The translations under genes were made by a program, and so were the position numbers. DNA of 64,000 nucleotides from Gaiellales bacterium (GTDB taxonomy: Bacteria > Actinomycetota > Thermoleophilia > Gaiellales > JAICJC01): NCBI GenBank assembly GCA_038230835.1, contig JBBRMM010000011.1, positions 52,529 through 116,528 of the forward strand, in the 5' to 3' direction. A model generated the notes under the pieces. It was not told where the DNA came from, did no database searches, and saw only the letters and a list, made by a program, of their open reading frames with translations. This document shows, piece by piece, positions 7,302 through 50,308 of the stretch; the stretch's first letter is position 1, and each line of letters begins with the position of its first letter.

Positions 7302-8272
7302 TTCCGCCTCTCTTCATCGTGGCGTGCGACCGCTCGGGGACGACCATGCTGCGCCTGATCCTCGACCGCAGCCCAGAGATCGCCATTCCCACGGAGTCGA
7401 TGATCCTGGTCGACTTCGCCCATCTTCGCTCCCGGTATGGGCCGCTGGACGCCGACGAGCAGTACGACCGGCTGGTGAGCGACGTGTGGCGGCACCTCAA
7501 GGTGCGCGAGTGGGGGCTGGTGTCCGCTCCGCCGCTGCGTGCCGGGCGGTCGGGTGGCGCTGCCTACCGGGCTGCCCTGGAGGCCCCGTACGAGGCCTAC
7601 GCCGCGATGCGCCGCAAGCCGCACTGGGGCGACAAGACGCCGTACTACGTGACCCACCTCGCGGAGGTCAAGCGCGTGTTTCCCGAGGCGCGGATCGTGA
7701 ACCTCGTGCGCGATGGCCGGGATGTGGCGCTGTCGCTGTTGCGCGTGCCGTTCGGGCCTGCGAACGTGTGGGCGGCCGCCCGCCAGTGGCGGGCGGCGGT
7801 GGACGCCGGGGACGACGCCCAGCGGCGCTGGGGCAAGGATGTGCTGACCGTGCGCTATGAGGACCTCGTGGGCGACCCGCCGGCGGTGGTGCGGCGGGTG
7901 TGCGAGTTTGCCGGGATCACGTACGACCCGGCCATGCTCGCCATCGAGGAGTCCGCCTCGGAGCGGCTCGCGGCCGGCCAGGAGAACTGGTTTCGCGAGT
8001 TGTACGCCGGTATCAACGCCGGGTCGGTGGGTAAGTGGCGGACGCGCATGTCGCCCCACTCGCAGGCCACCTTCGCCTCGATCGCCGGCGACGCGCTTCG
8101 CCGGCACGGATACGAGGTGTCCGTGACCGGCCCTCCGCCGCGCTGGCCGGAATCGGCATACCTGGTGCACAACTGGGTGGTGAAGGTGTGGCATTTCACC
8201 CGCCTCCACGTGATTCAGGAGCGCGGACGGGAGGTGCCGCACCTGATCCGCCGCCGTCTGCGCCGCCACTGA
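7298..8272 (+). CDS. Sulfotransferase-family protein (PAPS-dependent type)
   Basis: The GTG at 7298 overlaps the upstream stop (GTGA). 5'-PSB-like loop CDRSGTTML, 3'-PB-like VRDGRDVALS, and HWGDKTP. Confidence 0.8.
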   Translation: MIPPLFIVACDRSGTTMLRLILDRSPEIAIPTESMILVDFAHLRSRYGPLDADEQYDRLVSDVWRHLKVREWGLVSAPPLRAGRSGGAAYRAALEAPYEAYAAMRRKPHWGDKTPYYVTHLAEVKRVFPEARIVNLVRDGRDVALSLLRVPFGPANVWAAARQWRAAVDAGDDAQRRWGKDVLTVRYEDLVGDPPAVVRRVCEFAGITYDPAMLAIEESASERLAAGQENWFRELYAGINAGSVGKWRTRMSPHSQATFASIAGDALRRHGYEVSVTGPPPRWPESAYLVHNWVVKVWHFTRLHVIQERGREVPHLIRRRLRRH

Positions 8273-8283
8273 CCGCGGTGGGT

Positions 8284-9225
8284 TCATGGATGGCGATACG
8301 CGGGGAAGAACCTTGAGTCGGCGGCAACGTCCGCGGCGGCGCAGAGATCGGCGTACACACTCGGTTCGTGTACGCATGTGCCGATGTACAGCGGAACGCG
8401 TCCCGAGCCCATTGCCTGCTTGAACCGGTGCAGAGCATCGTCCTCCGACAGTCCGCCCCCGAGTACGAGCGTCTCGAAACCGCCGTCGCGCGCCCGTCTC
8501 ATCGCCTCGTACAGCACCAGGTTGGCGGCGGCGACGTCCCGCGCCTCGGGTGTCGACCCGGCCAGGAAGTAGTGCATCGCACCGCCTCCGCTGAGGAACA
8601 GGCCGGCTGCGGTGCCCGCATCGAGCACGTGCACCGCGTCGCCCATGCGCTCCAGTCGCTCGAAGAACCCGCGGTCGAACAGGTAGAAGCTGCGCGCGCC
8701 GATGCGCCGCATGGTTTCGCTGTAGAGGCTCTCGAACCGCTCGAGGTCGCGATGCTCGTGGACCTCCACCCCGCATCGCAGCGCCTTGCGCACCGCGGTG
8801 CGGCCCCGGCCCTCCATCTGCGCGAGCAGCCCGTCGTCGTCGGTGCCGACGTCGACGGTGATCGCGTCCTGCAGGCGGATCAACTCGACGCCCGGAAGCC
8901 CATCGTGATTGTGCAGCAGCGGGTGGAAGCGGATGAACTCGGATACCACCCGCCGTTCACGACACGCCTCGACGAAGGCCGGCCGCCAATCGCCGCGGCC
9001 GATCGGCCCCCCCGCCCCGTAGGCGCTCGTCAGATCGCACCAACCACCGTCCAGCTCGCGGACGAGGAACGGGTACAGGACGTCGCCGTGCGCGAACCCG
9101 GCCGGGGAACCACCGCCGATCATCGCCGCCGCTACGAGGTACTCGGGCCGCAGATACGGGTCGTCGGCGTCGCGCTCCCCCCACGCCTGCGCGTACTCGT
9201 CGAGCCCGAGCCAGCCCTGGATCAC
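8284..9225 (-). CDS. FemAB/CelD-like GNAT-fold acyl- or aminoacyl-transferase
   Basis: C-terminal 313 aa of ORF 8284..9897, starting at the GTG at 9223..9225, which overlaps the upstream stop. Segments FYLFDRGFFERL, HYFLAGSTPEARDVAAANLVLYEAMRRARDGGFETLVLGGG and LHRFKQAMG are typical of the FemAB/Acetyltransf_6 group seen in EPS loci. Confidence 0.55.
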   Translation of the reverse strand: MIQGWLGLDEYAQAWGERDADDPYLRPEYLVAAAMIGGGSPAGFAHGDVLYPFLVRELDGGWCDLTSAYGAGGPIGRGDWRPAFVEACRERRVVSEFIRFHPLLHNHDGLPGVELIRLQDAITVDVGTDDDGLLAQMEGRGRTAVRKALRCGVEVHEHRDLERFESLYSETMRRIGARSFYLFDRGFFERLERMGDAVHVLDAGTAAGLFLSGGGAMHYFLAGSTPEARDVAAANLVLYEAMRRARDGGFETLVLGGGLSEDDALHRFKQAMGSGRVPLYIGTCVHEPSVYADLCAAADVAADSRFFPAYRHP

Positions 9226-14913: not shown

Positions 14914-15273
14914 ATGCAGCTTCCGGCCGGGTTTCGCGTGGTGCACCCCGCCACTCCGCTCGAGGAGGCGGCGCATGAAACGGTGCGTGCCATACCTGCC
15001 GGGTCGGTCGCCAGCTACGGCCGGGTGGCCGATTGGATCGGCAGGCCCGGACGCTCGCGCGCCGTCGGCCGCGCGATGGCGGGCTGCCCGGACGACGTGC
15101 CGTGGCACCGCGTGGTGAACGCCTCCGGCGGGCTTGTCCCCGGCCACGAGCGGGAGCAGGCGCAGCGGCTGCGGGCCGAGGGAGTGCGGGTGGGCGCCGG
15201 TCGGGTGCAGGCGCCGGTGCCGTGGTGGCCAGGCCCGGTTATCCGTACTCGACCTGCTCGTAGTAGCGGGTGA
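14914..15273 (+). CDS. Alkyltransferase-like protein (Atl; MGMT DNA-binding domain without the catalytic Cys)
   Basis: ATG at 14914 in ORF 14764..15273. It has SYGRVA and PWHRVVNASG, where Trp replaces the Cys of the PCHRV motif. Confidence 0.75.
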   Translation: MQLPAGFRVVHPATPLEEAAHETVRAIPAGSVASYGRVADWIGRPGRSRAVGRAMAGCPDDVPWHRVVNASGGLVPGHEREQAQRLRAEGVRVGAGRVQAPVPWWPGPVIRTRPARSSG

Positions 15274-16267
15274 CTCGGCGGCCGATCCGTGCCCGGTGGC
15301 CGGCTGCTTCGACGTCGTCCTCGGCGATCTCGCCCAGGGCGAGCTTGACCGCCAGCCAGGGCAGGTTGAGGTCGGGCTGGTAGATCAGGGTCGAGACCCG
15401 CGGATTGATCTCGAGCAGACGGTCGCCGAGGAACTGCACGTTGACCAGCCACTCCAGCCCGAGCTCCGCGATCAGGTCGCCCGCGTAGACGACCAGGTCG
15501 GGCCGGTCGATCAGCCGGAACTCCATCGCCAGCCCGGCCCGGAATGCCTCCCGGGTCTTCGCGCTGACCGCCAGCACGCGTCCGCCTCGGCAGAGCGCGT
15601 CGACCGCCAACTCCTCGCCCTGCACGAGCTCCATCACGAGCATCGCCGGGAAGCCGTCGCTGCCGTCGAGAATCTCCACCGCGTCGTCGACGGACAGCGC
15701 CAGCAGCATGCCGGGGCGGCCGTTGAGGAGCTGGTCGCGGCGGTCGATCGATGCCGAGAGCACGCGGAACCCACGCGCGCCCTTGCCCTCCAGCGGCTTC
15801 ATGCAGACGTCGGTGGCCGGATACCCGAGCTCGGTCGCGGCCGCCCGGAAGGCGGCTGCGTCGCGGGCCTCGATCGTCCGCGGCTGGGGAATGCCGAGGC
15901 GGTCGGCCAGGGCGGCCGTCTCGGACTTCGTGCTGGAACGGCGCACCGCGTCCGCGCCGGACACCAGCACCGGCACGCCGAATCGCTCGATGGCGCGCGA
16001 GATCGGACCAACCTCGGCCGAGGATTGGGGGAACACCACCTCCACCTGCTCTCGTTCGGCAACATCCGCCAGCGCGTCCACGTACCCCGGGTCGGATCCC
16101 GCGGGCACCTTGTGAAACGCGTCGCACAGGAACCGACCGGCCGACTCCTCGCGCATGTCCACGCCGACCAGCCGCACCGGCCGCTCACCGTGCTCGCGCA
16201 GCGCCCGCAGCAGCCGCGGCGAGCCGGGCGCTCCCGACGCCGTGACCAGGATCGAGAGCGGCTTCAC
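15239..16267 (-). CDS. ATP-grasp family ligase (carbamoyl-phosphate-synthase-L-like fold)
   Basis: GTG at 16265..16267 (VKPLSILVTASG) inside ORF 15239..16474. ATP-grasp hallmarks are present: CMKPLEGKGARGFRV, MLVMELVQGEELAVD, NVQFLGDRLLEINPR. Confidence 0.75.
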   Translation of the reverse strand: MKPLSILVTASGAPGSPRLLRALREHGERPVRLVGVDMREESAGRFLCDAFHKVPAGSDPGYVDALADVAEREQVEVVFPQSSAEVGPISRAIERFGVPVLVSGADAVRRSSTKSETAALADRLGIPQPRTIEARDAAAFRAAATELGYPATDVCMKPLEGKGARGFRVLSASIDRRDQLLNGRPGMLLALSVDDAVEILDGSDGFPAMLVMELVQGEELAVDALCRGGRVLAVSAKTREAFRAGLAMEFRLIDRPDLVVYAGDLIAELGLEWLVNVQFLGDRLLEINPRVSTLIYQPDLNLPWLAVKLALGEIAEDDVEAAGHRARIGRRVTRYYEQVEYG

Positions 16268-16899
16268 AGGATCCAGCGGTACACCTCGAACACCTCGGCG
16301 AGCCGGCGGCCGCTCTCGATGCCTCGGGTGCGGGCGATGTTGCGGATGTACTCCTCGTTGGCGTAGTTGCGATGCTGCTGGCTGGCGTAGCAGTCGAGTG
16401 CCGCCACCTTGCGGTCGAGGTGGGAGGGCTCGAGCGTGACGTAGGCCTGCTGGCGGAACTGGAAGCAGTTCCACGGGATCTCGTACCCCAGCAGCGTCGT
16501 CCGCTTGAACGCACGCATGCCCTCCCGGGCAACGGTCTCGTGATCCTGGTGGATGTCGCCCAGCGACGGCATCAGCACGAGTTCGGGCTGCAGCTCGTCG
16601 TTGGCGGCGACCAGCAGTTCGAGGATCTCCTGCCGAGCTCCGGGAAACGTGCGTACCTCGAAGTCGTGCACGGCCAGGTTGGCCGGAGGGATGCCCAGGG
16701 CGGCCGTCGCGGCCCGCACCTCGTGGGCGAGCGTGTCGGCGGGGAACCCCTCGGGCAGCGACCGCGACGCGGTCGAAAAGGCGATGTAGTGGACGTCCGC
16801 GCCCGCCTCCACCAGCCTCGCGATCGTCCCGCCGCAGCCGAATTCGCCGTCGTCCGTGTGCGGCGCCAGCACCAGCGTGCGGCGCCCGGCGGCGATCAT
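16264..16899 (-). CDS. PIG-L/LmbE-family N-deacetylase
   Basis: ATG at 16897..16899 (MIAAGRRTLVLAPHTDDGEFGCGGT) inside ORF 16264..18078, with HQDH further on. 4-nt overlaps at both ends. Confidence 0.85.
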   Translation of the reverse strand: MIAAGRRTLVLAPHTDDGEFGCGGTIARLVEAGADVHYIAFSTASRSLPEGFPADTLAHEVRAATAALGIPPANLAVHDFEVRTFPGARQEILELLVAANDELQPELVLMPSLGDIHQDHETVAREGMRAFKRTTLLGYEIPWNCFQFRQQAYVTLEPSHLDRKVAALDCYASQQHRNYANEEYIRNIARTRGIESGRRLAEVFEVYRWIL

Positions 16900-18329
16900 A
16901 CGGAGTGCTCCCGGGCGGGCGCGGGGGTGGACGTGCGGGAGATGAGAGCGATCAGGGCGATCAGGATCCAGGTTGCGGGGTCTTCGAAGAAGGCATTGTA
17001 AAAGAGCGAGCTGGCGAGGATGGCGATGAACGCCGCCAGCAGGGTCAAGCGCACGCCGCGGGGCCCGTCGCCGCGCAGCGCAGCCACCGCCACAGACGCG
17101 ATCAGCGCCAGGTAGAGCGCCAGCCCGAGCGGCCCCTGCTCGGCGAGCACGGTCAGCACCGTCGTGTGCGACGCCGCTGTGCCGACCCGCCAGGGGTGCT
17201 CCGTTCCGGCCAGGGCTGCCCGGGCGAACCCACCCAGGCCGGCCCCGATAACAGGGTGGTGGGCGATCACGCGGTCGGCCAGGCGCACCAGGTGCAGGCG
17301 ATCCGACGTGACCCGGTTGGCGCTGTTGCCCTGGAGTGCGAGCGCGAGCGCGCCTGCGCCGCCGATCGCACCGGCGGCGATCAGCGCGATCGTGGCCCGG
17401 CGCGGCCACAGTCCCGCTCCCAGCGCGAGGACGCCGACCGCCAGCGCCAGCAGGCTCGACTGGGAGTAGGCGAAATACAGCCCGCCGAACACGGCGACCA
17501 TCACCGCCGGCACCCAGTTCGCGGCGCGGCGGTGAATCGCGAGCCCGGCCAGGATGATCAGGGTGACCGCCATGAACCGGCCGTAGATGCTTGGATCCCA
17601 GAACACCGAGTTGACCCGGAAGAACGACTTGTACTGATTGCCGACCTCGACCTTGGGGTTCCAGAAGATGTGGTGTGTGACCTCCTGCCAGAGCGCGATC
17701 GCGGCGAACAGCACACCGAGGCACAGCTGGACCGCGAATGCCCGGCAGAGCAGCGGCGGCCGCAGGTCGAGCGCGCCCAGCCGCGCCAGCAGGATGCCGA
17801 ACGGCAGGTAGAAGAAGAGCATGGTGACGGCGCCCCGATGATCGTCCGCGCTCCACGCCATCGAGAGTGCCGACCAGCCGACGAAGCCGGCCATCGCCCA
17901 GCCCGCTGCGCCCAGACGCGGCGGGCGCTCGACACCTCGAAACAGGTCGTACGCGCTCGCCACAACGCCCGCGGCGGTCACGACGTACAGCGGCACCAGC
18001 AGGTTGGCCGTCGATCCGCCCACGCTGAACGGGATCCGGATCGGCGCCGCCGCCACCACCGCGCACAGAAACAGCCACGGCCAGCGACGGGTGGCGACCG
18101 TTGCCGCCGCGAGGCCGCCGCAGCCGACCATCAGCGCGACCACGCCGAGCAGGGGGCGCGTCGCGAGCGTGTGGCGCACGTGGGTGAGCGGGCTCTGGAG
18201 CAGCGAGATCGCCAGCAGGCCGGCTCCGGACAGCCAGGCGGCGAACCCCAACCGCCGCAGCCGGAGATCCGCCACCGTCAGCAGCGGCACCAGGCCCGCC
18301 GCCCCGATGATCGAGCCGAGGGTGTTCAC
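16896..18329 (-). CDS. O-antigen ligase-like (Wzy_C-like) polytopic membrane protein
   Basis: 477 aa with at least 10 TM segments. It has YSQSSLLALAVGVL and a loop followed by GAGLGGF. GTG start at 18327..18329. Confidence 0.7.
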   Translation of the reverse strand: MNTLGSIIGAAGLVPLLTVADLRLRRLGFAAWLSGAGLLAISLLQSPLTHVRHTLATRPLLGVVALMVGCGGLAAATVATRRWPWLFLCAVVAAAPIRIPFSVGGSTANLLVPLYVVTAAGVVASAYDLFRGVERPPRLGAAGWAMAGFVGWSALSMAWSADDHRGAVTMLFFYLPFGILLARLGALDLRPPLLCRAFAVQLCLGVLFAAIALWQEVTHHIFWNPKVEVGNQYKSFFRVNSVFWDPSIYGRFMAVTLIILAGLAIHRRAANWVPAVMVAVFGGLYFAYSQSSLLALAVGVLALGAGLWPRRATIALIAAGAIGGAGALALALQGNSANRVTSDRLHLVRLADRVIAHHPVIGAGLGGFARAALAGTEHPWRVGTAASHTTVLTVLAEQGPLGLALYLALIASVAVAALRGDGPRGVRLTLLAAFIAILASSLFYNAFFEDPATWILIALIALISRTSTPAPAREHSV

Positions 18330-18994
18330 GCGGTCACCCCGGCCGCCAGCGGCGCCGAGACGTTGCCGGCGGCGTCGACGGCGACGAGCGTCATCCTCGC
18401 GCCCGGCAGCCGATCCCTGGCCGGAACGGCCACGTGCCCGTGGCGGCCGCGCAGGATGGTGCCCGGCGACCCTCCGGCGGGGCGGATCGAGAGGTAGATC
18501 CTCGCCTGCTCGCTGACGTGGTAGTGCACAGGCACCTGGCCGGGAGGACTGAGGAGGGTCAGCGTGGGTGGCGCCGTGTCGAGCACGACCGGGTCGGGGA
18601 TCGTGATCGCGCGTCCGAGCGAGAGCAGATCGACCCGCAGCCGGTAGCGCCCGTCAGCGGCCGGGGCACCGTTCTGCGTCCGCCCGTCCCAGCGCAGCGT
18701 CACACGACCCGCAGGGTATCGACGTCCGCCGGCCGGGGTGAAGGTGCGCACGATGTGTCCGCCGGAGTCCAGGAGCGTCAACTCGAGGGTGGCCGGGGTG
18801 CGCAGGGCGAACCCGAGGGCCGCCGTGCGCACGCAGTGCGGCCCGGGCTTGCAGGTGGTCGACAGGTGCTTGGTGATCCTCGGGGTCGCGACCGGGGATC
18901 GCTCGAGCTTCAGCTGCTCGGCGCGCACGAAGGCGCCGCCTGAGGCGGCGATCAGCACCGCCACGACGGCGTATCCGATCCGGGTGGCGGGCAT
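18326..18994 (-). CDS. Membrane-anchored protein with FlgD-Ig-like beta-sandwich domain
   Basis: N-terminal anchor IGYAVVAVLIAASGGAF. It has LELTLLDSGGHIVRTF...GRVTLRWDGRTQNGAPAADGRYRLRV, typical of FlgD_ig-type domains. Confidence 0.55.
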   Translation of the reverse strand: MPATRIGYAVVAVLIAASGGAFVRAEQLKLERSPVATPRITKHLSTTCKPGPHCVRTAALGFALRTPATLELTLLDSGGHIVRTFTPAGGRRYPAGRVTLRWDGRTQNGAPAADGRYRLRVDLLSLGRAITIPDPVVLDTAPPTLTLLSPPGQVPVHYHVSEQARIYLSIRPAGGSPGTILRGRHGHVAVPARDRLPGARMTLVAVDAAGNVSAPLAAGVTA

Positions 18995-19135: not shown

Positions 19136-19921
19136 CTACCAGGCGCCCAGCAGCTTGAGGCCGCTGGCTGCAAGCACCGTCGCGATCGAGCCGCGCAGCG
19201 CCTTCTCGTGCATCTTGGCGGTGAAGTGGGAGCCGATCAGGATGCCGGGGATCGAGCCGATCAGGATCGATCCGACCACCGAGTAGTTGGGAGTTCCCCA
19301 GAGCACGGTGGCGAGGCCCGCAGTGACGGTGACCATCGCGCCGTGGAAGACATCGGTACCGACCACCTTGCGCGCGGACAGGGGGAAGATCGTGACCAGC
19401 GCGACGCCGAAGAAGACGCCCGAGCCGACCGAGGTGAGGCCGAGCAGGAAGCCGAAGACCACGCCGATCGAGAGAGCCAGCACCCGATGCCGACGGGTGA
19501 GCGGGCCGTCGGTCGGCAGCTTGGCGTTCTTGAACAGCCCACGGATCGTGACGAAGGTGCGGATGGCGACCATGACTCCGACCAGCACCAGCATGTAGCC
19601 GATCACTTTGGGCAGCCAGGAGTCGATGTTGTGGAAGACGTGGTAGAGCGAGAAGACGCCCACCAGCGCGCCCGGTACCGACCCGGCGCCCATCCACAGC
19701 GCGAGCTCACGGTTGACGTTCTTGAGCTGGGTGTGCCGCGCCGCGCCGAACATCTTGGTGATCGACGCGTAGATCAGGTCGGTGCCGACCGCGGTGCCGG
19801 CGGGGATGCCGAAGAACGAGATCAGGATGGGCGTCATCAGCGAGCCGGCGCCCATTCCGGTCAGCCCCACCAACAGCCCGACGGCCAGGCCCGCCCCTAT
19901 CAGTCCGATATTGATGTCCAT
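19136..19921 (-). CDS. TSUP-family permease (TauE/SafE sulfite/sulfonate exporter family), copy 1
   Basis: 261 aa with 8 TM-like segments. It has GLTGMGAGSLMTPIL and an internal repeat GLTSVGSG. SD GGGGGAGG lies 8 nt upstream. Confidence 0.85.
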   Translation of the reverse strand: MDINIGLIGAGLAVGLLVGLTGMGAGSLMTPILISFFGIPAGTAVGTDLIYASITKMFGAARHTQLKNVNRELALWMGAGSVPGALVGVFSLYHVFHNIDSWLPKVIGYMLVLVGVMVAIRTFVTIRGLFKNAKLPTDGPLTRRHRVLALSIGVVFGFLLGLTSVGSGVFFGVALVTIFPLSARKVVGTDVFHGAMVTVTAGLATVLWGTPNYSVVGSILIGSIPGILIGSHFTAKMHEKALRGSIATVLAASGLKLLGAW

Positions 19922-19982
19922 CGCGCTTGCCTCCCCCTCGAAAAGAGTGCTGGCCGCCTACCGGCCCGCGTTGATTACCACT

Positions 19983-20012
19983 AGCCTAACCGATTTAGTG
20001 GGGAATGCAAGT
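19983..20012 (-). promoter_or_regulatory. Promoter-like element upstream of TSUP copy 1 (TTGCAT-N16-TAGGCT), containing the shared 16-nt motif
   Basis: The minus strand reads ACTTGCATTCCCCACT AAATCGGT TAGGCT. The first 16 nt are identical to the motif upstream of copy 2. Confidence 0.45.
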
Positions 20013-20050
20013 GGGTAAACAGAAATTTCTTCACCGCTTGCAGCGAACCC

Positions 20051-20851
20051 TCAGCCGAACAGGCCGAGCAGCTTCATGCCGGAGAGCGCCAGCACCGCTG
20101 AGAGCGAGCCTCTCAGCGCCCGTTCGGGCAGTTTGACCGAAAGTTGCGCTCCGACGAGAATCCCGGGGATCGAGCCGAGCATCAGGAACCCGATGCTGGA
20201 GAACGCGATCGAGGGCAGGAAGAAGTACGCCGCGGTGGCGGCCGCGATGGTGACCAGCGCGCCGTGGAAGAGGTCGGTGCCGACCACCTTCAGCGTCGAC
20301 AGCGGAAACAGCGTGAGCAGGGCCATGCCGAAGAACGCTCCGGCTCCGACAGAGGTCAGACCAAAGACGAACCCGAACACGAGGCCGATCGCCATCGCCA
20401 GCACCCGGTGGCGGCGATTCAACGGCCCGTCCTTGGGGATGTTGTCGGTGAAGATCGCCCGCAGCGTGAAGAACGTTCGGACCGCGACCGCAATTGCCAC
20501 CAGGATCAGGGCGTAGCCGATCACGTCCTTGATGTCTGCCTGGACGGCCTTGCCCTCGGAAGCGGCCAGCCGGTGCAGCGTGTACACGCCGGCGACAGAC
20601 GCCGGCACGCTGCCCACCGCCATGTAGACGGCGAGCTCGCGATGCACGGTGTTCAGGGTCAGGTGGCGCACGCCGCCGACCAGCTTGGTGCCGGCCGAGT
20701 ACAGCAGGTCGGTGCCCACGGCGGCCACCGCGCCGACGTTGAACACGGTGATCAGGATCGGCGCCATCAGCGATCCGGCGCCCATACCTGTGGCACCGAT
20801 CAGCAGGCCGACGACCAGTCCGGCCAGGGTGAGCTTCTCGTTCAGTCCCAC
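20051..20851 (-). CDS. TSUP-family permease (TauE/SafE family), copy 2
   Basis: ORF 20051..20875. I prefer the GTG at 20849..20851 because GAGG lies 5 nt upstream and the N-terminus then aligns in length with copy 1 (VGLNEKLTLAGLVVGLLIGATGMGAGSLMAPIL). Confidence 0.85.
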   Translation of the reverse strand: MGLNEKLTLAGLVVGLLIGATGMGAGSLMAPILITVFNVGAVAAVGTDLLYSAGTKLVGGVRHLTLNTVHRELAVYMAVGSVPASVAGVYTLHRLAASEGKAVQADIKDVIGYALILVAIAVAVRTFFTLRAIFTDNIPKDGPLNRRHRVLAMAIGLVFGFVFGLTSVGAGAFFGMALLTLFPLSTLKVVGTDLFHGALVTIAAATAAYFFLPSIAFSSIGFLMLGSIPGILVGAQLSVKLPERALRGSLSAVLALSGMKLLGLFG

Positions 20852-20861
20852 GATTGCCTCA

Positions 20862-20891
20862 AATATAAGCGGCAAAGTGGGGAATGCAAGT
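20862..20891 (-). promoter_or_regulatory. Promoter-like element upstream of TSUP copy 2 (TTGCAT-N16-TATATT), containing the shared 16-nt motif
   Basis: The minus strand reads ACTTGCATTCCCCACT TTGCCGCT TATATT TGAGGCAATC GTG. It sits directly after the sat terminator hairpin. Confidence 0.45.
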
Positions 20892-20894
20892 TAG

Positions 20895-20928
20895 CCTGCC
20901 GCCCACACCATCCGGTGTGGGCGGCAGG
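20895..20928 (-). terminator. Stem-loop terminator after sat
   Basis: Perfect 15-bp stem cctgccgcccacacc / ggtgtgggcggcagg with loop atcc, 8 nt downstream of the sat stop (20936). No U-tract. Confidence 0.6.
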
Positions 20929-20935
20929 AACCGGC

Positions 20936-22105
20936 TCAGCTCTTGCTGCGGTAGGCCTCGATCAGCACCTGCGCCACCTCGGGCCGGGTGAACTCGACCG
21001 GCGGGATCTCCCCGTTTCCGAGCATCTCCCGCACCTTGGTGCCCGAAAGGAACACGTGGTGCTCCTGGGGATGAGGGCAGGTCTTGTTGGAAGCCATGTT
21101 GCCGCACGTGCGGCAGAAGAACGTGTGGTCGAAGAACATCGGCTCGATGTCCAGCTCGTGCGGCTCGAACTCGTCGAAGATGTAGTGGGCGTCGTAGGTG
21201 CCGTAGTAGCTGCCCACTCCGGCATGGTCGCGACCGACGATGAAGTGCGAGCAGCCGTAGTTCTTACGGCAGATCGCGTGCCACACCGCTTCCCGCGGGC
21301 CGGCATAGCGCATTGCCGCCGGAAACACTCCGAGGAGCGTGCGGTCGGGCGGGTAGTAGCCCTCGAGCAGCACGTCGTAGCAGCGCATGCGAACGTCTGC
21401 AGGGATGTCGTCGCCCTTGGTCTTGCCCACCAGGGGATGCAGCAGCAGGCCGTCCACCGTCTCCAGTGCGCACTTCTGCACGTGCTCGTGCGCGCGGTGC
21501 ACCGGATTGCGGGTCTGGAAGCCGACCACTCGGCTCCAGCCACGCTCGGCGAAGATCCGCCGGGTGTCGACGGGGTCGAGCGTGGCGGCCGGGAAGGCAG
21601 GCTCAGGTCGTTTGAACACCGTCACCGGGCCACCGACGAGGGTCGACCCCTCGGCGTAGATCTGCGCCACGCCGGGGTGCGCCTCGTCCGTCGTGCGGTA
21701 GACCTTGGCGGCCTCGTTCTCGCGGTCGGCCTGGAACACCTCGGCCACCTTGAGCACGGCCAGCAGATCCCCCTCGTAGCCTTCGAGCGCGATCCGCCCG
21801 CCGCTGGGCGCAGTCTCCACGGCCAGCGTGACCGGGATCGCCCAGGGAAGACCGTTCTCGAGGTGCATGTGCTCGACCGAGCCGGTGTAGTCGGCGCTGG
21901 TCATGAAGCCGGTCAGCGGCGAGAGTGCCCCCGACGCGATCATGTCCAGATCTGCGGTCTGCTTCTCGGTCATGCGCACCCGCGGCAGCGATGCGGCCTC
22001 CGCGGCCAGGGCGGCGGCTTCGTCACCGCTCACCGTGCGGTCGACGAGTTCCCCGCCGTGGGGAGCGATCAGGTGGCTCTTCTTGGTCTCGGTCGCACCT
22101 GTCAT
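20936..22105 (-). CDS. sat: Sulfate adenylyltransferase (ATP sulfurylase, homo-oligomeric Sat type)
   Basis: ATG at 22103..22105 (MTGATETKK) inside ORF 20936..22639. Motifs: VGFQTRNPVHRAHE, GRDHAGVG, PUA-like N-terminal domain. Confidence 0.93.
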   Translation of the reverse strand: MTGATETKKSHLIAPHGGELVDRTVSGDEAAALAAEAASLPRVRMTEKQTADLDMIASGALSPLTGFMTSADYTGSVEHMHLENGLPWAIPVTLAVETAPSGGRIALEGYEGDLLAVLKVAEVFQADRENEAAKVYRTTDEAHPGVAQIYAEGSTLVGGPVTVFKRPEPAFPAATLDPVDTRRIFAERGWSRVVGFQTRNPVHRAHEHVQKCALETVDGLLLHPLVGKTKGDDIPADVRMRCYDVLLEGYYPPDRTLLGVFPAAMRYAGPREAVWHAICRKNYGCSHFIVGRDHAGVGSYYGTYDAHYIFDEFEPHELDIEPMFFDHTFFCRTCGNMASNKTCPHPQEHHVFLSGTKVREMLGNGEIPPVEFTRPEVAQVLIEAYRSKS

Positions 22106-22668
22106 CAGGCGACGGCCTCTTCTCGGGCGGGCTCCAGAAATCCGAGCCGCTCCAGCTCCCCGATCACGTACTCGGCCGACTGCTCGGGCGATCGGCCCTC
22201 GGTCTCGACCGTGATCTCGGGGTTCTCGGGTGCCTCGTACGGGTCCGAAATGCCGGTGAACTCCTTGATCTCGCCCGAGCGCGCCTTTGCGTACAGGCCC
22301 TTCAGGTCGCGTCGCTCGCATTCCTCCAGCGACGTGGCGACGAAGATCTCGACGAAACGGGTGTCGATCATCTCGCGCACCATGTCGCGGGTCTCGGAGT
22401 ACGGCGAGATGGCCGCGCAGATCACGCAGGCGCCGTGGCGCGTCAGCAGCTTCGCCACGAAGCCGATGCGCAGGATGTTCGTGTCGCGGTCCTCGCGTGA
22501 GAAGCCGAGGCCCTTGGACAGGTTGGTGCGGACGACGTCGCCGTCCAGGTGCTCGACCAGCACGCCGCGCCGCTCGATCTCGGGGCCGATGATCTGGGCG
22601 ATGGTGCTCTTGCCCGATCCCGACAACCCCGTGAACCACAGGGTGAATCCGGTGTGTTCGTGTGTCAC
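22105..22668 (-). CDS. cysC: Adenylylsulfate (APS) kinase
   Basis: GTG at 22666..22668 with AGGA 9 nt upstream. P-loop [31 protein letters not shown]-like segment. The stop overlaps the sat start by 1 nt. Confidence 0.92.
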
Positions 22669-22711
22669 TTCAGTGTTCCTTTCATCGATTGCCCACGGAT
22701 GGATCTCGGCG

Positions 22712-23401
22712 CTACCGGGCGTGCAGCCCGCACTCCACCTTGCCGGTGCCACGCCACCGTCCCGACCGCTCGTCGGCAGCCGCCCCGCCTGCGGAGCTGG
22801 TGCACGGGATGCAGCCGATCGACGGATACCCGTGGTCGTGCAGAGTGTTGTAGGGGATGCTGTGCCTCCAGATGTATCGCCACACGTCGCGGCTCGTCCA
22901 GTCTGCAAGTGGCTGGACCTTCACCACACCACGCCGTTCGTCCATCTCGATTTTGCGTGCATTCTGCCTCGTTGTCGACTGTTCGCGTCGAATTCCTGTC
23001 ACCCAAGCGTCCATTCCCTCCAATGCGCGCTCGAGCGGTGCGACCTTGCGGATCCCGCAGCATGCGTCGGGATCGCGCTCCCAGAGCCGATCTCCGTGCT
23101 CCTTGGCCTGCTCGTCGACGGTCAATTCGGGGTCGATTCTCTCGAAGTTTATCGGATAACGGGAGATTAACTTCTTCCGCGTCTCGTAGGTCTCCGGGAA
23201 CAGCAGACCGGTGTCGAACTCGACCACGCGCATGCTCGGTGCGATCTCGGACACCATGTGCACCAGCACGGAGCTCTGCTTCTGCCAGGAGCACGTGAGC
23301 AGGATCCGCTCGCCGAAGCGGTCGGCCGCCCACTCCAGTACGCGCTCGGCGCTCAGCGGCTCAAGCTCGTCCGCGACGCGGTCGATCTCGACGGCGGTCA
23401 T
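22712..23401 (-). CDS. cysH: Adenylylsulfate (APS) reductase, thioredoxin-dependent CysH type with Fe-S cysteines
   Basis: ATG at 23399..23401 (MTAVEID). PAPS_reduct fold with CC ([10 protein letters not shown]) plus CxxC (SIGCIPCT) and C-terminal ECGLH. The Cys pairs mark the APS-using, 4Fe-4S subclass. Confidence 0.88.
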
Positions 23402-23415
23402 GGGCAGGGTGCGGC

Positions 23416-24195
23416 TCACGTGCGGGCCGGGAGATCCCGCAGCAGAAGGTCGGCCATGGTGTCGGATCGCAGACCCAGACGGAGGGTCTCGAGCGGGATC
23501 ACCTCTTCGGGAGGGATGTTCCCCAGATTGACCTCGGCCCCCAGGTGGCGGATGAACCACGCCTGCTGTTCCTTCTGGGGCGCCTCGAAGAGCAGGTTGT
23601 CCACCGGGATCTCGTGCACGATCTCGTCGATCAAGCCGCTTCTGACCTCACCCGTGCCGCGGAAGATGCCGGCGGTGCCGCCCTCGCGCGCCTCTGTGAT
23701 CACCTTGACTGCGCCGGCGGCCAACTCCTCCTTGATCCACACCACCCACTGATACGGCGCGAAGATGCACTCGCTGTCCTTCGACCCGACCTCGGACAGC
23801 ACGACGAACTCCTGCGCGAGGGACGAGATCAGCTCGAGCTTCGAGTCGCGCTCGATCTGGATCGTGCCGTCGGACACCTCGACGTGTGTGAACCCGTGGG
23901 TGGTGGTCCAGCGGCGGAACTCATCCACCTTGCCACGGGCGATCGCCGCCTCCAGCAGGGTGCCGCCGCACATCACGGGGATTCCGGCCTGCTGGTACAG
24001 GCGCAGCTTGTCGACCAGGTTGCGCGTCACGTACGACGTGCCCCAGCCCAGCTTGACGATGTCGACGTAGTCGCCGGCGGAGTCCAGCAGCCCCTCCACC
24101 TCGGACAGCGTGAGACCCTTGTCGATCACGTGCGTCCAGCCGCGTTCGCGTGGTTTGGCCGGGCGCATCGGCAGACCCAGGAATTCTTCGACCAT
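23416..24195 (-). CDS. comA: (2R)-phospho-3-sulfolactate synthase (ComA family)
   Basis: 259 aa. Close by-eye match to archaeal ComA landmarks: VIDKGL, DYVDIVKLGWGTS, GGTLLE, VEVSDG, FEAPQKEQQAWFI, VNLGNI, EVIPLETLRLGLRSDT. Confidence 0.88.
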   Translation of the reverse strand: MVEEFLGLPMRPAKPRERGWTHVIDKGLTLSEVEGLLDSAGDYVDIVKLGWGTSYVTRNLVDKLRLYQQAGIPVMCGGTLLEAAIARGKVDEFRRWTTTHGFTHVEVSDGTIQIERDSKLELISSLAQEFVVLSEVGSKDSECIFAPYQWVVWIKEELAAGAVKVITEAREGGTAGIFRGTGEVRSGLIDEIVHEIPVDNLLFEAPQKEQQAWFIRHLGAEVNLGNIPPEEVIPLETLRLGLRSDTMADLLLRDLPART

Positions 24196-24210
24196 CAGCG
24201 ATGCCTCCCG

Positions 24211-24795
24211 CTAGAGCTTTGCGTAGATGGAGTCTTCGAGGCGCCTGCGCGCCTCGACCTGGACGTTCTCGTAGAGCGATTCGCCGTGTGTGTCCATGCC
24301 GACGATCAGCGGCCCGAAGTCGCGCACCCGGAACTTCCACAGGCACTCGGGCATCAGGTCTTCCCACTCGACCTGCTCGATCTCCTCGATCTGGGTCGTC
24401 TCGAGCGCCGCTGCGCCGCCGACGATCGCCAGGTAGACGCCGCCGTGCGCCCGCAGCGGCTCCAGCGCCTCGGGCAGCAGGCCGCCCTTGCCGATGATCG
24501 CCCTGGCCTGGTGGTCGCGCACCAGGCCCTCGGTGAACCGGCTCATCCGGGCCGACGTGGTGGTGCCGATGCACATCGGCTCGTACCGTCCGTCGCCGAG
24601 CTTCCGCACGTTGGGGGCCGTGTGCAGGAGGGCGGCGCCCTGGAGCGGGATTGGGGGCTGTTGGCCGTTGTCGAAGATCCGGATCTGGGTTGCGTCACGG
24701 ATCCCGATGATGTGCCCCTGGATGGTCACGGTGTCACCGGCGCGCAGTCCGCGGACGGTCGCCTCGTCGGTGGGGAAGGTGATCTCGTGGTGCAT
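24211..24795 (-). CDS. Class I (Fe-S) fumarate hydratase / tartrate dehydratase family, beta subunit (Fumerase_C)
   Basis: ATG at 24793..24795 (MHHEITF) in ORF 24211..24867. GDTVTIQGHIIGIRDATQ and IIGKGGL. The start overlaps the alpha-subunit stop by 1 nt. Confidence 0.85.
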   Translation of the reverse strand: MHHEITFPTDEATVRGLRAGDTVTIQGHIIGIRDATQIRIFDNGQQPPIPLQGAALLHTAPNVRKLGDGRYEPMCIGTTTSARMSRFTEGLVRDHQARAIIGKGGLLPEALEPLRAHGGVYLAIVGGAAALETTQIEEIEQVEWEDLMPECLWKFRVRDFGPLIVGMDTHGESLYENVQVEARRRLEDSIYAKL

Positions 24796-25694
24796 CAGGC
24801 CTCCCGATCCCAGTCGACGCTGCCGTCGGCGGTGATGTGGACGCTCGCCCGACGTGCGGCCCAGCACTGGTAGTTGACCGCCACTGGATTCAGGGTGATG
24901 TGCGTGTGCGCCTGCTCGACATGCACGGCAAGCACCGTGGTGTCGCCGCCCAGCCCCATCGGTCCCACGCCGGTCTCGTTCAGCAGCACGAACAGCTCGG
25001 TCTCGAGCCCCGCCACGTCCGGGTCAGCGTTCTGGGTGCCGACCGGCCGGGCGATCGCCTCCTTGGCCAGGTGCATGGCGAGGTCGGCCGAACCGCCGAT
25101 GCCGACGCCCACGATCCCCGGCGGGCACGGCTTGCCGCCCGCCCCGACGATCGAGTCGAGCACGAAGCGCTTGATCGCCTTCACGCCGTCGGCCGGCACC
25201 AGCATCTTCAGAAAGCTCATGTTCTCGGAGCCCGAGCCCTTGGGGACGCACTTGACGTCCAGGCCGTCCCAGTCGGGCACGAAATCCCAGTGGATGTGCG
25301 GGATCCGGTGGCCGGTGTTGTCCCCGGTCGGCTTGCGGGTCAGGGTGTGCACCGTGTTCGAGCGCAGCGGATGTTCGAGCGTCGCCCGCCGCGTGCCCTC
25401 TCGCAGCGCCGCCTCGATCCGCACCGGGTGGAGGCCGAAGCGCTCGCCCACGCGCACGTAGTAGACCGCGATGCCGGTGTCCTGGCAGACGAGGTTCTTG
25501 CGCTCGTCAGCCACCTCGACATTGGTGTTGATCGTCTCCAGGATCCGCTTTCCCACCTTGTGCGTCTCGCGCTCCATGGCATCCTTCAGGGCGTCGCGGA
25601 GATCCTGGGGGATGTCCTTGAGCGCCCACACGTACAGGTGCGCCGCGGCATCCTCCACCACCTGCGCCAGGTTGGTCTCGACGGTCGTCGTCAT
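24795..25694 (-). CDS. Class I (Fe-S) fumarate hydratase / tartrate dehydratase family, alpha subunit
   Basis: ATG at 25692..25694 (MTTTVETN) in ORF 24795..26837. LVCQDTGIAVYYV, PKGSGSENMS, GIVGVGIGGS. Confidence 0.85.
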   Translation of the reverse strand: MTTTVETNLAQVVEDAAAHLYVWALKDIPQDLRDALKDAMERETHKVGKRILETINTNVEVADERKNLVCQDTGIAVYYVRVGERFGLHPVRIEAALREGTRRATLEHPLRSNTVHTLTRKPTGDNTGHRIPHIHWDFVPDWDGLDVKCVPKGSGSENMSFLKMLVPADGVKAIKRFVLDSIVGAGGKPCPPGIVGVGIGGSADLAMHLAKEAIARPVGTQNADPDVAGLETELFVLLNETGVGPMGLGGDTTVLAVHVEQAHTHITLNPVAVNYQCWAARRASVHITADGSVDWDREA

Positions 25695-26896
25695 CGCGTC
25701 CTTTCGGCGGCCGCTGCGCCGGCCCGGCGGCCGAATACCACGCAGTCGAGCAGCGAATTGCCCATCATCCTGTTTCGGCCGTGCACGCCGCCGGAGACCT
25801 CTCCCGCCGCGAACAGCCCTTGCACGGTGGTCTCCCCATGGCGATCGATGCGAAGCCCACCGTTCTGGTAGTGAAGCACGGGATAGGTCAGGATCGGCTC
25901 GGTCAGCGGGTCGATGCCGGCCGCGCGATAGCGCCGCATCATGTACGGCAGCACCTGCGCGGCCACCTCGGGGTCGATCAGTGTGGTATCGAGCAGGACC
26001 GCAGGGCGACCGTCCGGAGTGGTCAGACCACGACCCTCGGCGCACTCGTTCACGATCGCCTCGGCCACGGTGTCGCGCGGAGCCAGCTCGTCCACGAATC
26101 GCTCCCCGGTGGCGTTTCGCAGCAGCGCGCCGTAGGCGCGGGTGGTCTCGGGGATCGAGTAGCCCTGCAGGGGCGGTGGCCATGCGCCGCCGTTGGGATG
26201 GTGCTGGAGGGCATCGAAGTCGCGCACCTCGGCACCCAGGTCGCGGGCCATGCCGGTGGCCTCTCCGGTGGCGCCGGGCTGGTTGGTGGTCAGCACGCCG
26301 GCCGCCTGGGCCTCGGCGTAGCAGCGCCCGCCGGTGGCCAGCACCACCGCGCCGGCGTCCACGGCGCGCCGCTCGCCCGCCTGCTCGACGACCGCGCTGA
26401 AGCGGCCGTTGGGCCGGTCGAGGGAGATCAGCGGCGCGTGGTCGTGGATCACCAGCCCACGGGCGTCGAGCGCCGAGCGCAGCGCGCTGGCAATGGCGTG
26501 GCCGGTGCGGTCGCCGACCTGCAACAGGCGGTGCGCGGTTGCACCGCCGCAGCGGGCCAGCCGGTACCCGTCGCCCTCGCGGGAGAATTCGACTCCCAGC
26601 TGCTCCAGCCAGGCGATCGCCTCCGGTGCCCCGGCCGTCAGCAGATCGGCCAGTTCCGGGTCGGCGGTGTCGTGCGACGAGCGGATGACGTCGGCGGCAT
26701 GCTGCTCGGGCGAGTCGTCGCCGCCGACGGCGGCCTGGATCCCGCCCTGAGCCTTGCCGGTGTTGCACGACGCCTTCGAGCCCTTGGTGATCAGCAACAC
26801 GTCGGCGCCCGCGCGGGACGCCGCCAGTGCCGCGCACAGGCCGGCCCCGCCGCTGCCCACGACGAGCACGTCAGCGTGTGTGGGGAGTTCGCTCAC
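25691..26896 (-). CDS. FAD-binding flavoprotein of the fumarate reductase / succinate dehydrogenase / L-aspartate oxidase family (short, ~400 aa)
   Basis: GTG at 26894..26896. DVLVVGSGGAGLCAAL, AQGGIQAA, LQHHPNGG, GLFAAGEVSGGVHGRNRMMGNSL. The C-terminal helical domain of SdhA/NadB is absent. The stop overlaps the next start (ATGA). Confidence 0.8.
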   Translation of the reverse strand: MSELPTHADVLVVGSGGAGLCAALAASRAGADVLLITKGSKASCNTGKAQGGIQAAVGGDDSPEQHAADVIRSSHDTADPELADLLTAGAPEAIAWLEQLGVEFSREGDGYRLARCGGATAHRLLQVGDRTGHAIASALRSALDARGLVIHDHAPLISLDRPNGRFSAVVEQAGERRAVDAGAVVLATGGRCYAEAQAAGVLTTNQPGATGEATGMARDLGAEVRDFDALQHHPNGGAWPPPLQGYSIPETTRAYGALLRNATGERFVDELAPRDTVAEAIVNECAEGRGLTTPDGRPAVLLDTTLIDPEVAAQVLPYMMRRYRAAGIDPLTEPILTYPVLHYQNGGLRIDRHGETTVQGLFAAGEVSGGVHGRNRMMGNSLLDCVVFGRRAGAAAAERTR

Positions 26897-26942
26897 GCAC
26901 CCAGCTTACAGAAGGAGGCCTAATCCCGCGAATAAGACGTCC

Positions 26943-27353
26943 TTATACTGAGTAGCGCTCGGCCGTGCAGCGGAGCTGGTCGCCGTCGGCCGGCACCTGG
27001 CCGATCTTCCACGGCAGCACCAGCGGGTCGCCGGCGTAGCGCGGGATCACGTGCACGTGGTAGTGAAAGACGGTCTGCCACGAGGCGGCGCCGTTGTTCT
27101 GCATGATCAGCACACCGTCCGCCCCCAGGGTGCGGACCGCCGCCTCGGCCAGTCGGCGGGCCATGCGGGCGCAGGCGGCGAGGTCGTCGTCGGACGCCTC
27201 GCGGATGTCCGGCGCGTGGGCTCGCGGAAGCACCAGCGCATGGCCGCGGGTGGCCGGGAAGATGTCCATGATCGCGATCGTCCGCTCGTCTTCGAAGACG
27301 CGCGTGGAGGGCAGCTCTCCGGCCACGATGCGGCAGAACAGGCAGTCGTCCAT
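26943..27353 (-). CDS. HIT-family (histidine triad) nucleotide hydrolase/transferase
   Basis: 136 aa. CLFCRIV, and the histidine triad HYHVHVIP. Confidence 0.9.
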   Translation of the reverse strand: MDDCLFCRIVAGELPSTRVFEDERTIAIMDIFPATRGHALVLPRAHAPDIREASDDDLAACARMARRLAEAAVRTLGADGVLIMQNNGAASWQTVFHYHVHVIPRYAGDPLVLPWKIGQVPADGDQLRCTAERYSV

Positions 27354-47539: not shown

Positions 47540-50278
<2,739 letters not shown>

Positions 50279-50308
50279 GCCGTGTGCTCCTTTCGACCCC
50301 TGTACATT

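Follow-up and report, generated by a model that had tools for sequence, protein, structure and literature searches.

Gene content of the locus

The stretch of DNA analysed here, 64 kb from a member of the Gaiellales (Thermoleophilia, Actinomycetota), is referred to below as the window. It carries a compact array of sulfur genes in which phosphosulfolactate synthase (ComA) stands between a flavoprotein and a fumarase-like pair on one side and the genes of sulfate activation and reduction on the other. The G+C content of the window is about 70%, and raw lists of open reading frames (ORFs) are crowded for that reason. The gene calls rest on the frame with high third-position G+C, on start-codon analysis and on an independent gene call made on an identical metagenome contig; all three give the eight genes described below. 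The closest homologues, both for ComA and for the flavoprotein, carry the annotation Gaiellales and are numerous in metagenomes.

All eight genes are on the minus strand. The array begins with a HIT-family (Hint-like) protein of 136 amino acids (26943–27353; Pfam HIT, 86.8 bits), which is accessory. It is followed by a short flavoprotein of the Frd/Sdh/NadB family, 401 amino acids long (25691–26896; FAD_binding_2, 255 bits), and by the two subunits of a class I, iron–sulfur (Fe-S) fumarate-hydratase-like enzyme, here called FumAB. The alpha subunit has 299 amino acids (24795–25694; Fumerase, 310 bits) and the beta subunit 194 (24211–24795; Fumerase_C, 105 bits). Then come ComA, with 259 amino acids (23416–24195; PF02679), and three genes of sulfate activation and reduction. 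These are CysH, a sulfonucleotide reductase of the Fe-S type that acts on adenosine 5'-phosphosulfate (APS), with 229 amino acids (22712–23401; PAPS_reduct, 181 bits); CysC, an APS kinase of 187 amino acids (22105–22668; APS_kinase, 216 bits); and Sat, a homo-oligomeric ATP sulfurylase of 389 amino acids (20936–22105; PUA_2, 171 bits, and ATP-sulfurylase, 328 bits). An earlier note on this DNA had named the same families, and the Pfam profile searches confirm all of its calls with high scores.

The junctions from HIT to Sat measure 46, -4, -1, 15, 14, 43 and -1 nt, negative values being overlaps. The gene order, the coordinates and the tight packing described in the earlier note thus hold, with 46 nt as the widest gap. 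The start of the fumarase-like alpha gene overlaps the stop of the flavoprotein gene by 4 nt, and an alternative GTG start of CysH at 23419 would turn its 14-nt gap to ComA into a 4-nt overlap. The genes of the operon are translationally coupled. In a search for riboswitches or other RNA elements, Rfam at the gathering threshold gave one tRNA only over the whole window, and a permissive scan of 18.5–28 kb gave nothing meaningful.

ComA and the sulfate activation genes

The ComA of the window scores 292.6 bits against PF02679, where the cutoff is 25.2, and covers profile positions 2–243 of 243, so the product of 23416–24195 belongs to the family to which the earlier note had assigned it. It falls short of the archaeal equivalog TIGR03849 (257 bits against a cutoff of 280), a model built on archaeal coenzyme M (CoM) enzymes. 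The best relatives of solved structure are Bacillus subtilis YitD (1u83, 215 bits) and Methanocaldococcus jannaschii ComA (1qwg, 160 bits), both aligning end to end. In a family alignment of 30 sequences at 33–65% identity, all 11 invariant and 25 near-invariant columns are kept. By these sequence comparisons, it is a canonical member of the family.

The family assignments of the genes downstream are strong as well. CysH passes NF002537 (269 bits, cutoff 154) and lies narrowly below TIGR02055 (223 bits, cutoff 235). Its translation carries the CC...CxxC cluster cysteines and the ECGLH motif (as KVECGLHAR) of the Fe-S, APS-type reductases. CysC passes NF002059 (252 bits, cutoff 244), and Sat passes NF003166 (543 bits, cutoff 387).

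Natural fusions of ComA were seen in a library of representative proteins clustered at 50% identity. The partners are ComB and, in P0246, P0271, P0289, P0307, P0346 and P0244, AMP-binding domains with or without acyl carrier protein (ACP) modules, an ATP-grasp domain like that of L-amino-acid ligases, and Fumerase_C. A single representative protein, P0244, joins Fumerase_C, the domain of the beta subunit of the fumarase-like pair, directly to ComA.

The fumarase-like pair

The alpha subunit, FumA, scores 318 bits against NF004885, above the fumarate-hydratase equivalog cutoff of 276, and 245 bits against the alpha subunit of M. jannaschii fumarase (7xky_A), and it keeps the cluster cysteines in CQDTG, CPP and QCW. 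The beta subunit, FumB, has 156 bits against NF004708, well below the cutoff of 269. It keeps the equivalents of R421, T467, T468, R471 and K491 of Leishmania fumarate hydratase, and around them are second-shell changes that are invariant within the lineage, including GPTT to GTTT, TARD to GIRD and AH to TQ, beside the substrate-binding Arg and Thr-Thr motifs. Taken together, the pair retains the malate-binding residues known from the enzymes of Leishmania and M. jannaschii.

The M. jannaschii class I fumarase and the L-tartrate dehydratase TtdAB share with FumAB the fold, the Fe-S ligands and the mapped catalytic residues. FumAB differs from both in its near-obligate linkage to ComA, in a beta subunit that falls below the equivalog cutoff, and in the lineage-specific substitutions; its substrate is a matter of prediction. 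The genomic context argues, by analogy, for a sulfonate analogue as that substrate, and we propose FumAB as a candidate sulfolactate or phosphosulfolactate lyase.

The flavoprotein

The flavoprotein consists of the flavin adenine dinucleotide (FAD) and capping domains only and ends at the equivalent of FrdA residue 416, where the C-terminal domain would start. An AlphaFold model (predicted local distance difference test score, pLDDT, 79) finds Escherichia coli FrdA as its best Foldseek match, with a template modelling (TM) score of 0.80. All NCBIfam equivalogs are far below cutoff, TIGR00551 (NadB) for instance at 254.7 against 452.75. Public annotations call it aspartate oxidase or Sdh/Frd flavoprotein.

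Among 43 orthologues, the equivalents of FrdA H232, E245, R248, R287, H355 and R390 are invariant. So are three departures from FrdA: the histidine that would carry covalent FAD (FrdA His44) is Asn in 43/43, T244 is Pro and E250 is Tyr. In 42/43, the position of NadB E121, the ligand of the amino group of the substrate (aspartate), is Cys. Relatives that hold FAD noncovalently reduce fumarate and are unable to oxidise succinate (PMC9557727). Since the catalytic and diacid-binding residues are kept, Asn replaces the FAD histidine, Cys replaces NadB Glu121 and the noncovalent relatives work only in the direction of reduction, the flavoprotein looks like a reductase of carbon–carbon double bonds and neither an amino-acid oxidase nor a succinate-type dehydrogenase. 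We propose it as a candidate sulfoacrylate reductase. It shares the FAD_binding_2 fold, noncovalent FAD and the complete Arg/His/Glu set with Shewanella Fcc3, yeast Osm1, NadB and urocanate reductase. It is unlike all of these in its length of 401 amino acids, in having no C-terminal domain and no haem, flavin mononucleotide (FMN) or NADH module, and in the Cys, Pro and Tyr substitutions.

Several other identities were considered for this protein. A complex II-type FrdA or SdhA fails on the Asn in place of His, the absence of the C-terminal domain, the absence of an Fe-S subunit gene from the operon and the low equivalog scores. L-aspartate oxidase (NadB) fails on the Cys at Glu121, the absence of the C-terminal domain and the TIGR00551 score, and an oxidase of cysteate or aspartate was rejected on the same Cys. 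Two loci with flavoprotein, ComA and Sat and no CysH prompted the idea of an APS reductase resembling AprA. That was rejected as well, since 27 loci hold both flavoprotein and CysH and the diacid-binding set is intact; there is also no AprB-like partner, and no AprA structure appears in the top 50 fold matches.

Conservation of the neighbourhood

We collected 80 further ComA loci from species-representative genomes (GTDB) using an alignment of five ComA sequences as the query, giving 81 with the window. These 80 were scored for matches to ten proteins of the window, and the ORFs around ComA were all clustered. Neighbour counts use the 66 loci whose sequence extends 4 kb or more upstream of ComA. 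In 44/66 of these, the flavoprotein gene is next to ComA, and the fumarase-like alpha gene is there in 35/66, always with the flavoprotein. CysH adjoins ComA in 33/66, CysC is near it in 29/66 and Sat in 24/66, with a further eight loci having CysD and CysN instead. A TSUP permease is nearby in 33/66, and a LysR regulator (cluster c5) is upstream in 35/66. The module of flavoprotein, FumAB and ComA is found in dozens of species-level Gaiellales genomes and on metagenome contigs that number in the hundreds, a good many of soil origin.

For the reverse direction, the starting set was 80 relatives of the fumarase-like alpha gene in metagenomes, 76–89% identical to it. At the loci that could be scored, FumB is downstream in 67/67, ComA is downstream in 51/52 and the flavoprotein is upstream in 64/69, and no other genomic context for this fumarase lineage was seen among the 80. 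The earlier note had asked how often ComA occurs with class I fumarase-like and Frd-like genes; the answer is that these genes are tied to ComA in both directions, near-obligately. HIT, which the earlier note had counted as a member of the operon, falls outside the conserved unit. It is present in 2 of the 81 genomic loci (the window and L003) and in 6/80 of the metagenomic ones.

The variant arrangements are instructive. In seven species, flavoprotein, FumAB, ComA and TSUP occur without nearby cys genes, and in six species, ComA, CysH, CysC, Sat and TSUP occur without flavoprotein or FumAB. One of these six, L004, a close relative with the same flanks and a ComA 75% identical to that of the window, is missing HIT, flavoprotein and FumAB as one block. 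At many loci, ComA heads the cys genes with reading frames overlapping or nearly abutting. Where CysD and CysN replace Sat (L013, L027, L031, L034, L036, L052, L061 and L064), they do so at the same position after CysH and CysC, and in L036 the replacement is apparently a CysN–CysC fusion. This is a non-orthologous swap that keeps the link to ComA.

A second arrangement is found in Solirubrobacterales, where ComA overlaps a downstream gene for a His_Phos_1 phosphatase and there is no flavoprotein and no FumAB. Over the 66 loci, the phosphatase follows ComA in 10/22 flavoprotein-negative loci, as against 0/44 flavoprotein-positive ones.

In 29 related loci (e.g., L026, 5405–6364), the window not being one of them, LysR and the flavoprotein are separated by a short protein, of about 320 amino acids, from the iron-dependent alcohol dehydrogenase (Fe-ADH) family. 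Its best matches are weak and comprise choline dehydrogenase, 4-hydroxybutyrate dehydrogenase, lactaldehyde reductase and sulfoacetaldehyde reductase. Often a CBS-pair protein accompanies it. The Fe-ADH-family protein could carry out a further step on a sulfonated aldehyde or alcohol.

Comparison with known ComA pathways

The sequel of ComA differs among the pathways described so far. The earlier note had reported that sulfite reductase, cysteine synthase, ComB, ComC, ComDE and the Xcb genes are missing here, and Pfam scans covering nearly all other predicted genes of the 64 kb window agree. None of the first five is found, PF04029 (ComB) in particular having no match. The aspartase/fumarase-superfamily (Lyase_1) and pyridoxal phosphate (PLP) enzymes of the Xcb route are absent from the operon, the window and the annotated neighbour clusters. 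Among those clusters, over the 80 loci, there is also no sulfite reductase within 10 kb of ComA. The wording of the earlier note, that ComA is served in place of a sulfite reductase, nevertheless goes beyond what one window can show, as a sulfite reductase may lie elsewhere in the genome.

The methanogen CoM pathway has the same first reaction and a ComA of the same family, but the enzymes that follow there, ComB, ComC (Ldh_2) and ComDE (a thiamine pyrophosphate decarboxylase), are those absent from the window. Nothing in this locus suggests CoM-dependent metabolism. The Xcb route to CoM in Xanthobacter autotrophicus Py2 also starts from a ComA homologue, XcbB. It uses no phosphatase; a class II type lyase of the aspartase/fumarase superfamily eliminates phosphate to give sulfoacrylate, and a 3-sulfopropionyl intermediate follows (PMC9457059). 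XcbC, D, E and A are absent here. In that route, cysteine is then added, followed by the action of a PLP enzyme and a reductase, whereas the candidates here are an Fe-S class I hydro-lyase and a flavoprotein reducing a carbon–carbon double bond.

The closest precedent is in B. subtilis, where yitB (PAPS-reductase-like), yitA (Sat) and yisZ (APS kinase) adjoin yitC (ComB) and yitD (ComA). The activation and reduction genes were inferred twenty years ago to supply sulfite for phosphosulfolactate, the precursor of the sulfolactate that makes up 5% of spore dry weight (PMC517825). As in the Gaiellales, a PAPS/APS-reductase-like gene, Sat and APS kinase are next to ComA, and the cluster lacks a sulfite reductase. 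The B. subtilis cluster differs in having ComB (YitC), in ending at sulfolactate and in having no fumarase-like or Frd-like genes; here, the flavoprotein and FumAB stand in the place of ComB. In actinobacteria, a ComA homologue is the entry point to the 2-sulfoacetyl group of misaugamycin-B (misNOPQ; PMC9136965), and cg2796–cg2797 of Corynebacterium glutamicum is another ComA cassette (PMC2627906). The partners in these two are different (acyl-CoA ligase, ACP, glyoxalase), and neither has linked sulfate activation, flavoprotein or fumarase-like genes.

Two claims of the earlier note have to be divided in the light of these precedents. The wiring of sulfate activation to ComA is real and is conserved in many Gaiellales species, but it is already known from B. 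subtilis (PMC517825), and the impression that this link is itself new is corrected here. That the locus encodes an undescribed pathway stands insofar as no known post-ComA step is present and the combination is unpublished as far as we could find, and falls insofar as the first half has precedent. Specifically, the literature searched yielded no description of ComA combined with a class I Fe-S hydro-lyase and an Frd-type flavoprotein. What is new is the extension of the ComA pathway by flavoprotein and FumAB, where a phosphatase would be.

A proposed route to 3-sulfopropanoate

With fumarase-like and Frd-like enzymes locked to ComA, the simplest reading is a chain of sulfonates that parallels malate, fumarate and succinate. 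Sat would make APS from sulfate, the Fe-S-type CysH would reduce APS to sulfite, and ComA would add the sulfite to phosphoenolpyruvate to give (2R)-phosphosulfolactate. The FumAB-like enzyme would then dehydrate sulfolactate, the analogue of L-malate, to sulfoacrylate, the analogue of fumarate; by our own reasoning from the priority rules, the (R) form of sulfolactate matches L-malate in spatial configuration. Alternatively, the same enzyme would eliminate phosphate directly from phosphosulfolactate to give sulfoacrylate. This would fit the absence of a phosphatase from the flavoprotein-positive loci, and we consider it and the dehydration of sulfolactate after the action of an unlinked phosphatase to be equally possible. 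Finally, the short Frd-like flavoprotein, using noncovalent FAD, would reduce sulfoacrylate to 3-sulfopropanoate, the analogue of succinate. CysC would divert part of the APS to 3'-phosphoadenosine 5'-phosphosulfate (PAPS) for the sulfotransferases of the surrounding glycan locus, described below. The chemistry of sulfoacrylate and 3-sulfopropanoate is biologically plausible because the sequence from 3-sulfopropanoate through sulfoacrylate to sulfolactate is reported, as cited in PMC11489063, as a catabolic route in Roseovarius.

We give the full chain, from sulfate through APS, sulfite, phosphosulfolactate and sulfoacrylate to 3-sulfopropanoate as a biosynthetic operon of the Gaiellales, a probability of about 0.45. 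Confidence in the half from sulfate to phosphosulfolactate is much higher, as the steps of Sat, CysH and ComA would follow from strong family membership and from the precedents in B. subtilis and methanogens. The steps of FumAB and the flavoprotein are suggested by gene linkage, substrate analogy and active-site residues.

Several observations weigh against this chain. FumA passes the NCBI fumarate-hydratase equivalog cutoff, and FumAB and the flavoprotein keep every mapped canonical residue for binding fumarate or malate, so both could act on true C4 dicarboxylates. Because no phosphatase is encoded, the FumAB step needs either an unprecedented elimination of phosphate by an Fe-S hydro-lyase or a phosphatase that is unlinked. 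The flavoprotein has no evident domain or partner for electron input, and no gene for an Fe-S subunit is found in the operon. Eight loci have LysR, flavoprotein and ComA without FumAB, and the flavoprotein is therefore not strictly dependent on a linked hydro-lyase. The mutual exclusion of phosphatase and flavoprotein tracks taxonomy, the one being found in Solirubrobacterales and the other in Gaiellales, and may be phylogenetic rather than functional.

Two other ideas were set aside. The HIT-family protein was considered as the missing phosphatase and rejected because hardly any of the related loci has it. A reversed, desulfonating action of ComA, in an operon for scavenging sulfonates, was rejected by our own reasoning that the elimination of sulfite to regenerate phosphoenolpyruvate has no driving force; the absence of a sulfolactate kinase also disfavours it.

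Three broader alternatives deserve comparison with the biosynthetic chain. In the first, FumAB would be a fumarase of the usual kind, and the flavoprotein either a soluble fumarate reductase, equally ordinary, or an aspartate oxidase that has degenerated. Both would serve a need unrelated to sulfonates, for example redox balancing, and the sulfonate product of the operon would be phosphosulfolactate or sulfolactate. The equivalog score of FumA speaks for this, as do the cluster cysteines and catalytic residues conserved in both FumAB subunits, the complete set from H232 to R390 in the flavoprotein and its public annotations. The near-obligate linkage to ComA in both directions is hard to reconcile with it, as is the close relative L004, which lost the block and kept ComA with its cys genes. 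FumB, far below its equivalog cutoff, has lineage-invariant changes just beside the substrate-binding residues; the flavoprotein has Cys for Glu121, Pro for T244 and Tyr for E250 and lacks both a C-terminal domain and an Fe-S partner; and nadA and nadC are not nearby. We therefore regard ordinary enzymes as unlikely. Ranked slightly lower is the possibility that sulfolactate is the end product of the ComA branch and that flavoprotein and FumAB run in reverse, salvaging 3-sulfopropanoate or sulfoacrylate from outside, with the two routes converging. ComA with a phosphatase alone does occur, in Solirubrobacterales and B. subtilis. The Roseovarius route, as cited in PMC11489063, runs in just this direction, the TSUP permeases could import a sulfonate, and the flavoprotein–FumAB block is gained or lost as a unit. 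Set against this are the loss of the covalent-FAD histidine in 43/43 orthologues, a state in which relatives do not oxidise succinate, and the fact that the Gaiellales loci lack a phosphatase to complete the making of sulfolactate de novo. On balance, salvage seems rather improbable.

About as improbable, in our estimate, is that the locus is mainly a general operon of assimilatory sulfate reduction, with a CysB-like LysR and a TSUP sulfate permease, whose sulfite reductase and cysteine synthase are located elsewhere, ComA being a side branch or a buffer for sulfite. Sat, CysC, an Fe-S CysH and LysR are indeed standard parts of assimilation, and the window gives a view of only 64 kb of the genome. 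A protein of the TauE/DUF81 family is the proposed sulfate permease of the C. glutamicum cys cluster. However, seven species keep flavoprotein, FumAB, ComA and TSUP with no cys gene nearby, and many others have ComA as the first gene of the cys set, in frames that overlap or nearly abut. The annotated neighbour clusters, as noted, place no sulfite reductase near ComA, and B. subtilis has a second set of sulfate-activation genes dedicated to its ComA.

The hairpin and the TSUP permeases

A strong hairpin lies directly 3' of the Sat stop codon (20886–20935, minus strand), with a perfect core of 15 bp within 20895–20928. Folding confirms this feature of the earlier note: it has a free energy of -40 kcal/mol and a z-score of -5.8, and 0/200 shuffled sequences fold as well. 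It is likely a terminator or a processing site. A scan for consensus terminators did not list it because it has no T tract.

Beyond the hairpin, also on the minus strand, are two tandem paralogues of the TSUP/TauE permease family, at 20051–20875 (TSUP1; Pfam TauE, 122 bits) and 19136–19921 (TSUP2; 143 bits). No NCBIfam model matches either. An identical 15-mer, CTTGCATTCCCCACT, occurs upstream of each, at 20876–20890 and 19997–20011 on the minus strand, within a longer conserved stretch that resembles a duplicated promoter: TTGCAT, 16 nt, and then TATATT or TAGGCT. Since this element occupies 20876–20890, TSUP1 more likely starts at the GTG at 20851 than at the 20875 end of its ORF. The 15-mer is absent from the 82 other loci compared, so it is local to the tandem TSUP duplication of this genome. 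With each gene following a promoter-like element of its own, both are probably transcribed separately. The earlier note had proposed that the permeases are dedicated to transport of the sulfonate. Placed behind a strong hairpin and with promoter-like elements of their own, they do not bear out that dedication, and uptake of sulfate or sulfite is equally possible. They might bring in either of these anions or export the product.

The surrounding glycan locus

The LysR regulator of the module is also found in the window. The gene at 3747–4661 (plus strand; HTH_1 and LysR_substrate) is the cluster c5 orthologue of the regulator that stands directly upstream of the module at the 35/66 loci counted above. 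In the window, some 22 kb separate it from the module and it is on the opposite strand, so the locus has been rearranged. Its score against NF040786, named for a selenium metabolism-associated LysR, is 249.8 against a cutoff of 250.

A sulfotransferase at 7298–8272 (plus strand; Sulfotransfer_3, 119 bits) is a likely user of the PAPS made by CysC. Homologues of it are found in 11 related ComA loci (L005, L007, L018, L019, L027–L029, L032, L037, L038 and L048). CysC probably feeds such nearby sulfotransferases. Their presence in the window and in those 11 loci gives a purpose to CysC, which the APS-type CysH does not need. Arylsulfotransferase-like genes were also seen in Solirubrobacterales loci, and a sulfatase in L003. 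The neighbourhood as a whole appears devoted to decoration with sulfur.

Downstream of the TSUP genes and in the same direction is a further array at 15239–18994 (minus strand), whose genes overlap by 4 nt and encode, by Pfam, an FlgD_ig membrane protein, Wzy_C, a PIG-L deacetylase and an ATP-grasp ligase. The sulfonate may be used by this array. In 48/66 loci, the FlgD_ig protein comes after the module; Wzy_C occurs in 35 loci and PIG-L in 23. The best NCBIfam match of PIG-L is BshB1, below cutoff. The ATP-grasp protein consists of PylC-like_N and ATPgrasp_Ter, and the same pair of domains ends the ComA-containing array in four Solirubrobacterales loci. As a conserved partner, ATP-grasp was left as speculation, being present only in the window and those four loci within the available flanks.

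More widely, the module is embedded in a long series of envelope-glycan genes that run in one direction and are, for their part, conserved around ComA across orders. Neither this setting nor the likely sulfotransferase client of CysC figures in the earlier note. Other members of the series include glycosyltransferases, a PglF-like dehydratase, a DegT aminotransferase, a sugar-phosphate transferase and dTDP-rhamnose genes. In two Solirubrobacterales loci (L062, 9995–19764, and L075, 10001–18871), ComA and the phosphatase belong to a closely packed series of genes in one direction, separated by small gaps or overlapping, together with FlgD_ig, a flippase-like membrane protein without a Pfam match, three glycosyltransferases, a Bac_transf initiating transferase and ATP-grasp. 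This setting hints at a surface polymer decorated with sulfur, for which the sulfonate and PAPS would be made. A more specific version is that the ComA of Gaiellales and related Thermoleophilia makes a sulfonated C3 acid, sulfolactate in Solirubrobacterales and 3-sulfopropanoate in Gaiellales, which is built into an envelope glycan assembled by Wzx and Wzy, giving a polymer both sulfonated and sulfated. That version is speculative, and we would not expect it to hold in full. One possible route would be ligation of the acid by ATP-grasp to an amino sugar de-N-acetylated by PIG-L, alongside PAPS-dependent sulfation.

Other genes in the window were noted in passing. A FemAB/GNAT-like acyltransferase (8284–9225, minus strand) lies among the glycan genes beside the sulfotransferase. 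An EgtD-like histidine-specific methyltransferase (41741–42718, plus strand; Methyltransf_33, 355 bits) has no recognisable EgtB adjacent to it, and upstream of it is a gene for 416 amino acids with no Pfam match (38998–40248). Housekeeping context is given by a class II (B12-dependent) ribonucleotide reductase with NrdR (47540–50761, minus strand) and by the single tRNA gene (62288–62360, plus strand).

Implications

Much of the sulfur of aerobic soils is bound in organic form, as sulfate esters and sulfonates, and little is known of the microbes that produce small sulfonates. Gaiellales and related Thermoleophilia are abundant in soil. If the steps proposed for FumAB and the flavoprotein are true, two very thoroughly studied families, class I fumarase and fumarate reductase, would gain activities on sulfonate analogues, and there would be a third way of handling phosphosulfolactate after ComA. 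Sulfoacrylate or 3-sulfopropanoate would then be a product of biosynthesis and not merely an intermediate of breakdown. Should the reading of a sulfonated and sulfated envelope glycan also prove true, FumAB and the flavoprotein would be the first members of the Fe-S hydro-lyases and Frd-type reductases with a known activity on sulfonate analogues of malate and fumarate, and the polymer would be a hitherto unrecognised biological source of soil organosulfonates.

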